From the IMG/VR virus record IMGVR_UViG_3300022747_000014: a DNA stretch of 34,323 bases. One strand, 5' to 3'. This document shows, piece by piece, positions 9,384-32,680 of this stretch (position 1 is its first letter; each line of letters begins with the position of its first letter). The notes beneath the pieces are model-generated. The model was not told where the DNA came from, did no database searches, and worked only from the letters and a program-made list of their open reading frames with translations. This stretch comes from a virus (taxonomy: Duplodnaviria; Heunggongvirae; Uroviricota; Caudoviricetes). The translations under genes were made by a program, and so were the position numbers.

Positions 9384-9974
9384 ATGATGAAACCATTTCA
9401 GTCATACATTTTCGAATTGAAGAAACCGTTCGAATTTCGTGTTAAATTGGCAACGATTGAGCCTAAGGGTGAAGTAATGGAACGTATTAAAAATGCGTTA
9501 AACACTTACCAGTTAGAAAGCGTTAGCCCAGTTAAGAGTTTACCTATTATGGAACACAGAGAGTTTCCACAATGGGGCCCATGCGAGTGCTGGCAATTTG
9601 ATGTCAAAGTTGCCTACCCAACAAATACAGTAGCAATCCGTCAATTGATCAAAGAACGTGCCAATATTAATCCTGATTGGATTTGTGTTCGTAATTTAAA
9701 CGAAGCAGTTGACACAGAAGAAGCAGAAGCAATTGGGCAAGACACAAAAGGACCAGTACTGACTGATCCAGTTCTCAAAGATAATCCAGAAGGTCAAAGT
9801 TATGTAGGTCAGAACCGCATTGGTAATCTGCTAAAAGAACTTGAATCACGTAAATTTGAATTTGCACAAGACAGCAAAGAAGCCGGTAAAGATACAAATG
9901 ATTCTCCGGTTGGCGATGCAAGCCCTATGTCAAAACAGAATAAGATGTATAATCCGCTTAAAGGAAAAAAATAA
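9384..9974 (+). CDS. hypothetical protein, putative head-associated
   Basis: Start reassigned to ATG 9384 (AGGA SD at 9375, TAAATA at 9361-9366); N-terminus MMKPFQSYIFE is targeting-leader-like. Confidence 0.7.
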   Translation: MMKPFQSYIFELKKPFEFRVKLATIEPKGEVMERIKNALNTYQLESVSPVKSLPIMEHREFPQWGPCECWQFDVKVAYPTNTVAIRQLIKERANINPDWICVRNLNEAVDTEEAEAIGQDTKGPVLTDPVLKDNPEGQSYVGQNRIGNLLKELESRKFEFAQDSKEAGKDTNDSPVGDASPMSKQNKMYNPLKGKK

Positions 9975-11785
9975 TGAGCCACCACGACGACAATCTATAT
10001 ACCATTTTGGGTAAATTGCAAACGTTAAGAGCAGACGAGCAATCATCTGTTGCTGAAACAAAAACAACAGACACTGTCTACGAGAGCGTGGAAGCTCAAG
10101 GTAGCGTACTAGAAGGTGTTAACAAAGTTGAAGCTAAACTTCTTAAGCAGTTTCAAGAATCTAAAAAAGCCAAGAAAGATTACGACAAAGATGGCAAGAT
10201 TGAATCTGAAAAAGACGAAGTCATTGGTAGTCGCCGTAAAGCTGCTGGCCTAGACGAAGACTCTAAGAAGGCTAAAAAAGATTACGATAAAGATGGCGAG
10301 ATCGAGTCTGAAAAAGACGAAGTAATTGGTAGTCGTCGTAAAGCTGCGGGCTTAGACGAAAACCAAGTGGACGAAATGTTTGCGTTTGATACCAAGCCAG
10401 GTAAAGACAAAGGTCGTCCCGATGAGTTAGCTCGTCGTGCTAAATTGGGCAAGAACCCGTTAGCAAAAGGCAGTCCACACGCCTCTGAATACAAAACAAA
10501 AGACAAATATGGCAATGCATATAATATTGCTGGTCCAAAAGGTCAATTGCCAGAAGAGCGTGAAGAAAACGTTGCTATTCCCGGAACAGATAAAAAAGCT
10601 CAATCTAAATATACTCCGGTAAACAAGCCAGCACCTGTTAAGAAATTTGACAAACCGACTGACAAGTTTGACAAGATTAAAAACGAAGAGACAGTTTCTG
10701 AGCGAGCAAGAAACAAGTACTCTATTGGCATGGCAGCAGCTAAAAAGTCAGCTGGATACGGCTCTAAGCCGGCACACAACTTGCCAAAGAAAGTGATTAA
10801 CAAAGGTCACGAAATTGCCAGGAGCATTAACGAAGGCATTAACTTTGCTGAGATGATGCGCGATACTGATACTAGCGTAGCAGAGATGTTGAGCGAACTG
10901 CAAGCAGATATTACAGATTTTAAGAAAACAGGACATGCTAGTGACAAGCTAGAAGCCTTCTTAAAAGTGCACCACCATGGTAAGCGTCTAATGGGCGAAG
11001 CAGTGCCAAAGGGACCTAGCTTTGCACCACAAGATGCAATGGCATTAGCAAAACCAACAGCTCCATTTGAACCAAGTCGTATCCAAGGTACTAAACCACC
11101 GTCAATGGTAGACCGCGCTAAAGGCGCATTAGGTTCTGTCGCTAGCGGCATTAACAAAGTAATTGGTCACGGTAGTGATGAGGACTTGTTGGCAGACTTG
11201 CGTAACAAAAGCACAATGGAAGAAGATGCTAAGTTACACGAACTAGCACGTTTAGCTGGATTAACACTAGAAGAAAATTTTGAACTCAATGATGTTCCTG
11301 GCATGGGACAAGAGGGCAAGATTAGTGTTAGTTCTAACAGCAGCAGTGATGGCAACAGAAGTGTTAGTATCAATGCCGATGGCGAAGCAGCAGACGAACT
11401 AATGCAGATGTTAAAGATTGCTGGCCTTGGCGGCGGCGATGTTGATTTAGACATGTCGGCTATGCCAGATGATGAACTAGAAATGGTAGATGTTCCAACT
11501 GACTGTGGCGATGACGTAGTTAGCATGGACACAGACGGCTTGTCCGGGGACGAAGGAGTCGAAGAAGACTACTCCAATGAACCAGACGAACAATACTTTA
11601 GTATGAAGGCCAGTACGTTGAATCCAGGCGAAGGCGATAATGGCGAAAAACAAATGAACCCAGATCGTCCTACATTTAAGAATGGCGACAATGCAATGAG
11701 CCGCCCACCAATGCGTGAAGCTGTTCTTGCACTAGAAGCTGAACTGGCTGCTGAGTACGAAAGCATTAAAAAAGTTAGCAAGTAA
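9974..11785 (+). CDS. large acidic/low-complexity protein, putative internal head or scaffold-type protein
   Basis: 603 aa, D/E/K-rich, many (L/I/V)xE potential prohead-protease sites, internal 34-aa tandem duplication. Confidence 0.65.
   Translation: MSHHDDNLYTILGKLQTLRADEQSSVAETKTTDTVYESVEAQGSVLEGVNKVEAKLLKQFQESKKAKKDYDKDGKIESEKDEVIGSRRKAAGLDEDSKKAKKDYDKDGEIESEKDEVIGSRRKAAGLDENQVDEMFAFDTKPGKDKGRPDELARRAKLGKNPLAKGSPHASEYKTKDKYGNAYNIAGPKGQLPEEREENVAIPGTDKKAQSKYTPVNKPAPVKKFDKPTDKFDKIKNEETVSERARNKYSIGMAAAKKSAGYGSKPAHNLPKKVINKGHEIARSINEGINFAEMMRDTDTSVAEMLSELQADITDFKKTGHASDKLEAFLKVHHHGKRLMGEAVPKGPSFAPQDAMALAKPTAPFEPSRIQGTKPPSMVDRAKGALGSVASGINKVIGHGSDEDLLADLRNKSTMEEDAKLHELARLAGLTLEENFELNDVPGMGQEGKISVSSNSSSDGNRSVSINADGEAADELMQMLKIAGLGGGDVDLDMSAMPDDELEMVDVPTDCGDDVVSMDTDGLSGDEGVEEDYSNEPDEQYFSMKASTLNPGEGDNGEKQMNPDRPTFKNGDNAMSRPPMREAVLALEAELAAEYESIKKVSK
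10157..10360 (+). repeat. 102-nt (34-aa) in-frame tandem duplication
   Basis: (E/D)SKKAKKDYDKDG(K/E)IESEKDEVIGSRRKAAGLDE at 10157-10258 and 10259-10360, differing mostly at synonymous positions. Confidence 0.9.
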
Positions 11786-27562: not shown

Positions 27563-27709
27563 TTTTGAGATAGACGTAGGGTTTGAGTCCCATAGTGCAT
27601 AGCATACCGGCTGGTATGTGACAAAGCCACATTGCACCTATGGTAGTTTAAACTTGCCCATACGAGACAATCCAGTGAGTCCCGCCGAGGGATAGTTGGG
27701 CTCTCAAAA
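27563..27709 (+). ncRNA. candidate structured ncRNA (~147 nt)
   Basis: Closed by TTTTGAGA/TCTCAAAA; inner helices CCATAG-TGCA/TGCA-CTATGG and CATACC/GGTATG; TGAGTCCC repeated twice. Confidence 0.55.
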
Positions 27710-27718
27710 ACCTATAAT

Positions 27719-27810
27719 GGGGTGTCTGGTGAGTTATTCACGTTCGATTCGTGTTAATGGTGGTTCCGCCCGCGCAGCACTCATGAGGTTCGATTCCTCA
27801 TCGCCCCACC
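27719..27810 (+). ncRNA. tRNA-like RNA with two TTCGATT loops
   Basis: Acceptor-like GGGGTG/CGCCCC and canonical T arm (A)TGAGG-TTCGATT-CCTCA(T); second hairpin CACG-TTCGATT-CGTG; no D arm; ends ACCC. Confidence 0.5.
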
Positions 27811-27815
27811 CGATT

Positions 27816-27896: not shown

Positions 27897-27975
27897 GGGG
27901 TATCAGTAGCATCTAACTGGTAGGGTTCAGTAGTAGCCCTTTGTTGGTAACTATGTAGTCCAATATACTCCACCA
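27897..27975 (+). ncRNA. tRNA-like cloverleaf with Ala-type acceptor
   Basis: GGGGTAT/ATACTCC-ACCA (G3.U70, A73); three hairpins but no TTC loop and no D-loop GG consensus. Confidence 0.55.
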
Positions 27976-28505: not shown

Positions 28506-28581
28506 GCAGTAATGGAGAAGGCAGGTGCCCTGTGCATCGTATACTAGTTGCCACAAAGGTTCGAGTCCTTTGGCTGCACCA
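28506..28581 (+). ncRNA. tRNA-like RNA/pseudo-tRNA (76 nt, CCA end)
   Basis: GCAGT/GCTGC acceptor, canonical T arm AAAGG-TTCGAGT-CCTTT, ACCA; no canonical D or anticodon stem. Confidence 0.5.
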
Positions 28582-28584
28582 AGA

Positions 28585-30207: not shown

Positions 30208-30283
30208 GGGGGTGTAGCTCATCTGGGAGAGCAGTAGCTTTGCAAGCTAAAGGTAGTCGGTTCGATCCCGACCATCTCCACCA
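30208..30283 (+). tRNA. tRNA-Ala (UGC)
   Basis: G3.U70, loop TTTGCAA, CCA. Confidence 0.93.
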
Positions 30284-32463: not shown

Positions 32464-32540
32464 GCCCTTGTGATGGAATTGGTATACGTTCTTGATTCAA
32501 AATCGAGATTTTGTGGGTTCGAGTCCCACCAAGGGCACCA
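32464..32540 (+). tRNA. tRNA-Leu (CAA), short variable loop
   Basis: CTTGA-TTCAAAA-TCGAG, ~5-nt variable region, A73-CCA. Confidence 0.85.
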
Positions 32541-32546
32541 AGTTAT

Positions 32547-32599
32547 GGGGGGCGGTGCTAGCCTTACCGGTAATCATGAGCCGGGACAGCCCTCCACCA
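32547..32599 (+). ncRNA. 53-nt mini-tRNA-like RNA with Ala identity element
   Basis: GGGGGGC/GCCCTCC-ACCA (G3.U70, A73) enclosing only 35 nt; spaced like a tRNA gene between two Leu tRNAs. Confidence 0.55.
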
Positions 32600-32603
32600 A
32601 CAT

Positions 32604-32680
32604 GCCCTGGTGGCGAAATTGGTAAACGCAGCGGTCTAAGAAGCCGTAAGCTGAGAGTTCGAGTCTCTCCCAGGGCACCA
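32604..32680 (+). tRNA. tRNA-Leu (AAG), short variable loop
   Basis: GCGGT-CTAAGAA-GCCGT, Leu-type D loop, T arm GAGAG-TTCGAGT-CTCTC, A73-CCA. Confidence 0.82.

Follow-up and report, generated by a model that had tools for sequence, protein, structure and literature searches.

A 53-nucleotide element on the + strand of the 34,323-nucleotide stretch of viral DNA analyzed here (referred to as the window), at positions 32547-32599, appears from sequence comparison to belong to a real, selected and uncatalogued family of mini-RNAs of the non-decoding tRNA-mimic kind, whose function we infer. It is highly probable that this 53-mer is a functional RNA that accepts alanine and does not decode. Its annotation as a mini-RNA gene, a three-way junction with an alanine-type acceptor end, is based on its predicted fold, its homologues in other phages, covariation, and a covariance model that scores the window copy at 86.6 bits. 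No description of the element was found in Rfam or in the literature searched, and an unnamed entry is possible among 10,006 viral candidate RNAs (PMC10690425).

The element is closed by a 7-bp acceptor stem, P1, in which positions 32547-32553 pair 7/7 with 32589-32595. The pairs include G1-C72, G2-C71 and G3·U70, and the 3' strand (32589-32599, with U70) continues into the discriminator A73 at 32596 and an encoded CCA at 32597-32599, such that the full bacterial alanine identity set is present. Thirty-five nucleotides are enclosed by this stem, and spacers of 6 and 4 nt separate the element from tRNA-Leu(CAA) upstream (32464-32540, +) and tRNA-Leu(AAG) downstream (32604-32680, +), respectively, both of which are replaced by different neighbors in other carriers. 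A sequence-only reading made before this analysis had given the same coordinates, acceptor features, enclosed length and spacers, and re-examination bore all of them out. Markov-resampled windows of 34 kb are expected to contain 0.008 such elements, compared with the 1 observed. ARAGORN and Rfam make no call on 32547-32599, either at the gathering threshold or at E 10, and genes of this kind are systematically missed because they are invisible to both. A promoter scan did not rise above shuffles, and for this reason no promoter of its own is claimed.

The predicted fold is a three-way junction with a minimum free energy of -24.0 kcal mol−1 that accounts for 85% of the ensemble, with a z-score of only -1.7 relative to shuffles. 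The P2 hairpin (32554-32563; 3 bp and a GCUA loop) abuts P1 with no unpaired base between them, an arrangement that would permit a 10-bp coaxial helix. An invariant UUA junction (32564-32566) leads into the P3 hairpin (32567-32584), which has 5 bp with a U·G closing pair and an 8-nt loop, and an invariant GACA junction (32585-32588) stands in place of the variable loop and T arm. The fold lacks a T arm, a D-loop motif and a normal 7-nt anticodon loop. The earlier reading had described a single interior hairpin, of which the fold retains P3 and to which it adds P2; likewise, its term minihelix, which strictly denotes an acceptor plus T arm, does not describe an element that has a three-way junction and lacks a T arm.

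Is the 53-mer peculiar to one phage? It was found in 11 further contigs that, with the window, form nine carrier groups and contain six distinct sequences, and every copy is 53 nt long. Pattern scans of IMG/VR located it in five contigs (L001, L002, L005, L012 and L013), and a scan of metagenomes in six (L068, L078, L093, L098, L107 and L109); contigs L153-L155 represent the window's own phage. Among the 109 metagenome pattern matches, the six 53-nt members lie on contigs with 5-23 tRNAs, and the others on contigs with 0-1. All copies reside inside jumbo-phage tRNA arrays in eight different neighborhoods, with neighbors as varied as Leu/Leu, Phe/Leu, Ser/Arg, Asn, Trp and non-tRNA modules. Between carriers, sequence identity stops at G1 and at CCA and no flanks are shared. 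Because identity ends at these boundaries while the neighbors differ, the 53-mer behaves as would a tRNA gene cassette being shuffled from one array to another.

Other databases gave negative results. A blastn search against 50,697 GenBank phage records returned only short chance matches to the 53-mer, the covariance model found no copy in five cultured jumbo phages that are close by RecA (CBB, XbC2, Phosso, 2.275.O and Atu_ph07), and a GTDB scan found none apart from one chance archaeal match. Looser viral patterns, in which P2, the GACA junction or the 5' end was left free, returned the same five contigs plus chance matches, and thus no diverged members were found. Several candidates were set aside. 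Pattern matches in the five cultured jumbo phages were rejected as unpaired chance matches, and eight soil contigs matching the metagenome pattern (L048, L064, L110, L125, L132, L137, L141 and L147) were also assigned to chance; these have 6/7 acceptor pairs, 19 bits, no tRNAs and a site 5' of a dehydrogenase gene, and they derive from one bacterial lineage. A 53-nt match with 7/7 pairs in L173 (1811-1863), L215 and L227 was not counted, given its different interior and lack of tRNA context. This intergenic match, in one phage without tRNAs, has G3·U70, A73 and CCA preceded by A(-2)U(-1), and may be due to chance.

Alignment of the six distinct sequences reveals 40/53 invariant columns, and all 90 of the 90 pair cells are standard pairs. 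The alanine identity set, including G3·U70 and A73, never varies (6/6 variants), and the P1 stem retains 7/7 pairs in every variant. Two-sided changes are observed at four base pairs, namely bp 6 of P1 (G-C or A-U) and 3/5 pairs of P3, and RNAalifold, unprompted, returned the same structure. The covariation score is 0.253 compared with 0.122 ± 0.029 (0/500 shuffles; slid controls ≤0.107), a control that overstates the significance because there are only six distinct, related sequences. Because P2 is invariant in sequence it shows no covariation, and folding energy is the only support for its pairing. The strand that folds is the + strand, as indicated by three invariant G·U pairs. P3 and its loop vary at 10/18 positions, compared with 0/17 in the core (positions 8-20 and 39-42; Fisher p = 3e-4). 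Moreover, mean identity between carriers is 0.90 for the 53-mer and 0.69 for tRNAs of the same anticodon, a difference that search bias may raise since the metagenome pattern fixed positions 8-17 and about 20/53 positions in all; viral patterns that left positions 8-17 free found no variants. In the comparison of L153 with L109, the 53-mer is 100% identical and 19 tRNA pairs have a median identity of 65% and a maximum of 86%. Recent exchange between phages may add to this high identity, and four-gamete violations among the variants point to recombination or recurrent change. The proposal that this is a natural stand-alone RNA gene with a full alanine identity set thus gains support from recurrence, conservation and compensatory changes.

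A skeptical reading is that the 53-mer is a non-functional remnant of a tRNA-Ala or tmRNA that was recently spread by recombination between tRNA arrays. The patchy distribution, the identical copies in distant phages, the recombination signal and the folding z-score of only -1.7 would all fit such a history. However, four two-sided compensatory changes with no broken pair largely refute it, as do the constant length, the non-random placement of variation, the unshared flanks and the slot itself, and we consider a remnant extremely unlikely. The slot was inspected in relatives retrieved by protein anchors, independently of the 53-mer pattern. At these loci (L156, L157/158, L159/160, L163/164 and L263-L267), no 53-mer was present within the 14-20 kb fetched, and the orthologous slot holds other tRNAs or nothing, never a full tRNA-Ala. 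Ordinary tRNA-Ala(UGC) is kept separately by the carriers. Origin by simple deletion therefore fails, since the slot contains no full tRNA-Ala, tRNA-Ala(UGC) is encoded elsewhere, and the 53-nt form recurs with compensatory changes; the full tRNA-Ala in close relatives that the sequence-only reading had named as the observation that would overturn it did not appear. Locus L156, which lacks the 53-mer in its fetched tRNA island, has a median protein identity of 73% to the window (24 proteins), and the carrier G003 has 54% (21 proteins). Absence from close relatives and presence in more distant ones is an accessory pattern.

The window phage is of the jumbo type, and its RecA shares 63-69% identity with the RecA proteins of CBB, GAP32, XbC2, Phosso, Atu_ph07 and Vibrio phage 2.275.O. 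Its tRNA island contains 25 tRNAs called by ARAGORN, including an ordinary tRNA-Ala(UGC) at 30208-30283, together with genes for a cysteine phosphatase, RpoZ and ClpS; the last two correspond to an RNA polymerase omega subunit (PF01192; 31187-31393, +) and a ClpS-like protein (PF02617; 31478-31897, -). Both flanking tRNA-Leu genes are only 77 nt long and lack a long variable arm, and one has the rare anticodon AAG; in L163, tRNA-Leu(AAG) stands alone in the corresponding slot. The second non-tRNA with alanine identity that had been noted at 27897 is indeed present, as a cloverleaf-like 79-nt RNA (27897-27975, +) with a full alanine acceptor set and no TTC loop, directly 5' of tRNA-Ser(UGA). 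It was found again only in the window's own phage (L153 and L154), and L005 has at the same position a different 85-nt alanine-acceptor RNA with an 8-bp stem (9933-10017, +). An ORF-free module of ~150 nt (window about 27563-27714, +), closed by a GTTTTGAGA/TCTCAAAA helix and without a match in Rfam, is conserved in L002 and L005 (9777-9930) with a variable interior, and in L005 it lies directly 3' of the 53-mer. Two further tRNA-like modules in the window (27719-27811 and 28506-28582, +) have a T arm and odd interiors and are not called by ARAGORN defaults, and the related carriers L250 and L068 encode CCA-ended RNAs of 87 and 89 nt, also without an ARAGORN call, with a T-like loop and an 8-bp acceptor starting GGAGUGUG. 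One carrier has a GOLLD RNA (RF02032, 201 bits; L012:11725-12186, -) ~1.5 kb from its 53-mer. Related tRNA islands (L156:12429-13100, L163:12505-13173 and L265:1083-1754) contain an RF-1-domain ORF preceded by a PCRF-like ORF of 35 codons, which suggests a split or recoded release-factor-like gene.

How would a mature RNA arise from such an array? In our reading, Rak2/GAP32-like jumbo phages carry the 53-mer as a small accessory RNA gene that would be transcribed together with the array tRNAs; host RNase P would then cleave at G1, and trimming would leave the encoded CCA as the 3' end. For cleavage of hairpin substrates and pre-4.5S RNA, RNase P needs neither an intact specificity domain nor the normal T-loop contact, although loss of the T loop lowers efficiency (PMC11143913). 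An A(-2)U(-1) leader (window 32545-32546, +) precedes 13/13 copies examined and is the commonest leader of array tRNAs (69/146). These features could also be taken to mean that the 53-mer only punctuates processing, as a compact signal for RNase P and 3' exonucleases that helps to release neighboring RNAs and has no role after cutting. Every copy has A(-2)U(-1) and RCCA, the enzyme's tolerance of hairpins and pre-4.5S RNA lacking a normal T-loop contact would allow it (PMC11143913), and in L005, L012 and L107 the 53-mer adjoins non-tRNA sequence. However, the copies in the window, L002 and L013 are flanked on both sides by complete tRNAs, for which an additional signal is unnecessary, and mere punctuation would leave G3·U70, the length and the 17-nt core free to vary, which makes such a role very unlikely.

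A processed 53-mer would be expected to be alanylated by host AlaRS through G3·U70 and A73, in line with established identity rules from which alanylation is predictable (PMC9976931). It should not decode, because it is without a T arm, D-loop motif or normal 7-nt anticodon loop. Could it nevertheless be a decoding tRNA of the T-armless type known from nematode mitochondria, with P2 as a shrunken D arm, P3 as the anticodon arm and GACA as the TV-replacement loop? The three-arm topology and size range are alike (PMC4013460, PMC7609411), and in 3 variants the P3 loop reads U-CGC-GA, where CGC is an alanine anticodon. However, the loop is 8 nt, the other 3 variants have CAU (Met) as the central triplet under the same alanine acceptor, the base after the triplet is G compared with A37 in 30/31 Met and Ala tRNAs of these phages, and such tRNAs need an extended EF-Tu. 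We regard this assignment as highly unlikely. The same loop sequence, at 32574-32579 of the window (UCAUGA, also readable as U-CAU-GA), is a self-complementary hexamer, and UCAUGA and UCGCGA are both 6-nt palindromes within a hairpin loop that differ by a two-sided change, but this represents one event. The predicted gain upon dimerization is -8.5 kcal mol−1, a value matched by 22-41% of random loops. With one two-sided change to go on and a dimer energy no stronger than the control, a kissing-loop dimer of the HIV-1 DIS type is treated as a lead only.

A further question is whether the 53-mer reaches the ribosome at all. It might serve as a codon-independent peptide acceptor, similar to puromycin or tmRNA, that is alanylated and either carried by EF-Tu to free nascent chains from stalled ribosomes or acts as an EF-Tu sponge. 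P1 and P2 together would make up a 10-bp helix, with ACCA at its end, in place of the acceptor and T stem, and the minimal EF-Tu ligand is reportedly a 10-bp helix with NCCA (Rudinger et al. 1994). P2 is invariant, and its three pairs occupy the places of 49-65, 50-64 and 51-63, the T-stem pairs that tune EF-Tu affinity (PMC1904265). PTH2 and release-factor-like genes are present in related islands. The 13-nt 5' connector ending in A20 and the GAC connector echo tmRNA spacing. Against this, the strand break and P3 insertion are on the 3' strand (the 65/66 equivalent), opposite to tRNA and where EF-Tu contacts the backbone; the P1-P2 helix could therefore equally exclude this factor. Moreover, bacterial EF-Tu does not bind T-arm-less analogs (PMC4013460), there is no T loop and no GG/UCGAC D-loop motif, unlike in the mycobacteriophage DS6A tmRNA, no Rfam tmRNA match was obtained even at E 10, and no SmpB was found in carrier fragments that are 6-14% complete. 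The tmRNA-like option raised by the sequence-only reading is thereby weakened, since the T arm and D-loop motif that the DS6A RNA keeps are missing, and a peptide acceptor is unlikely. A related structural model is that of a natural bacterial aminoacyl carrier, free of T arm and anticodon, which would work via its own fold. It would be either a mimic of the acceptor/T helix, strand-swapped and 10 bp long, that gains entry to EF-Tu or the ribosome independently of a codon, or a homodimer joined by kissing loops and carrying two alanylated ends; we consider this model doubtful.

What, then, would an alanylated RNA that does not decode be for? The idea we tentatively put forward from the sequence comparisons, the likeliest of those considered although short of probable, is that the 53-mer is a decoy or competitive inhibitor of a host protein that handles tRNA 3' ends. 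Sequence is fixed throughout the core but only shape is kept in P3, which implies a specific binding partner; P2, UUA and GACA would form a compact non-tRNA surface beside the acceptor end, to which one conserved host protein would bind. No carrier-specific protein family was observed near the 53-mer in carrier fragments, and no conserved antisense partner RNA in carriers. A host-encoded partner is favored because the gene travels alone, without a fixed neighboring protein gene or conserved antisense RNA; the carrier contigs span only 6-14% of their genomes, and the partner may be phage-encoded. Such a decoy would shield translation of the phage from, for instance, a toxin that acts on acceptor ends or a surveillance enzyme. 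The rationale for a role in translation protection is that the 53-mer is patchy and occurs in islands with RNA ligase, RtcB, PTH2 and phosphatase genes, all of which are found in the tRNA islands of carriers and relatives. On the other hand, an invariant non-tRNA body is not obviously needed against fast-evolving toxins.

An invariant core would also suit one enzyme of the phage itself or of the host, as in the proposal that the 53-mer is dedicated to donating alanine away from the ribosome: AlaRS would charge it, EF-Tu would pass it over, and a transferase (Fem/MurM, MprF-like or GNAT type) would use it on glycan, lipid, protein or DNA. Aminoacyl-tRNA-dependent transferases read mainly the acceptor stem, the missing T arm predicts weak EF-Tu binding, and these phages have many glycosyltransferase, methyltransferase and radical-SAM genes. 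However, in contigs that are 6-14% complete there is no protein family specific to carriers near the 53-mer, no Fem-like or aminoacyl-transferase family among the matches listed (top Pfam families of 98 carrier proteins), and no PF13480 match in five carrier contigs. A donor role is for these reasons rather unlikely. A residual share belongs to unforeseen explanations other than a decoy, donor, peptide acceptor, punctuation, T-armless tRNA or remnant. The 53-mer is small enough for direct tests with E. coli AlaRS, RNase P, EF-Tu and SmpB.

Acceptor-only RNAs are well-established substrates in the laboratory and serve as models for primordial tRNA, and the descriptions that we found of minimal examples from nature concern organellar tRNAs and TLD-only tmRNAs, the latter with a T arm. 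A predicted alanine acceptor of 53 nt that has no T arm and is more conserved than neighboring tRNAs points to an unrecognized aminoacyl-RNA function in phage infection. Relative to canonical tRNA-Ala (RF00005), the 53-mer agrees in the acceptor set of G1-C72, G2-C71, G3·U70, A73 and CCA, but has two small hairpins in place of the D, anticodon and T arms of the cloverleaf and receives no ARAGORN or Rfam call. Among natural RNAs, the 53-mer comes closest to the TLD-only ('Standard, no CDS') tmRNA of mycobacteriophage DS6A, a reported tmRNA inhibitor, along with ~65-nt forms in Mallomonadaceae plastids (PMC4131195, PMC11915505). The TLD-only tmRNA and the 53-mer are both phage-encoded and share a G3·U acceptor, an A discriminator, a short internal hairpin, and the lack of an anticodon and of a tag reading frame. 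However, the DS6A RNA (L243:1501-1583) is 83 nt long, has a full T arm and a GGUCGAC D-loop/P2 entry, and scores 43.2 bits on RF00023, whereas the tmRNA covariance model has no match at 32547-32599 or on the copies in five carrier contigs. In DS6A the T stem-loop is stacked on the acceptor, where the 53-mer has the 4-nt GACA junction, and an unpaired D-loop mimic with a GG...UCGAC P2 entry (the SmpB site) occupies the region that in the 53-mer, at positions 8-20, is an invariant hairpin plus UUA. This 5' region agrees with DS6A only in its length (13 nt) and in A20-C21, and the P2 hairpin is an addition. The 53-mer is thus not a TLD-only tmRNA, because the tests of T arm, D-loop motif and RF00023 score all fail; by analogy with the DS6A type, it may likewise act as a non-decoding alanine mimic.

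The T-armless and armless mitochondrial tRNAs of nematodes, mites and arachnids (44 to about 60 nt) are similar in size, three-arm topology and short T-arm replacement loop (PMC4013460, PMC7609411). These tRNAs decode with a 7-nt anticodon loop and a specialized EF-Tu, in contrast to the 8-nt loop, CAU/CGC triplet and bacterial host of the 53-mer. The non-proteinogenic tRNA-Gly of Staphylococcus, a donor for Fem enzymes, has lost elbow features, is predicted to bind EF-Tu weakly and keeps its acceptor identity intact. The 53-mer shares this elbow loss, the predicted weak EF-Tu binding and the intact acceptor identity, but the tRNA-Gly is a full cloverleaf with a known partner enzyme, whereas none was found for the 53-mer. 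Finally, synthetic minihelix-Ala and microhelix-Ala, which are AlaRS substrates, have the same identity set (PMC9976931). These are laboratory hairpins composed of an acceptor with or without a T arm, and a strict minihelix-Ala is a 12-bp acceptor plus T helix capped by a T loop, whereas the 53-mer is a natural gene that has 7+3 bp, a GCUA loop, a side hairpin at a three-way junction and a conserved core unlike that of a tRNA, and that lacks a T loop. If it does act as a T-arm-free aminoacyl carrier, the 53-mer would be the living counterpart of these synthetic minihelices.
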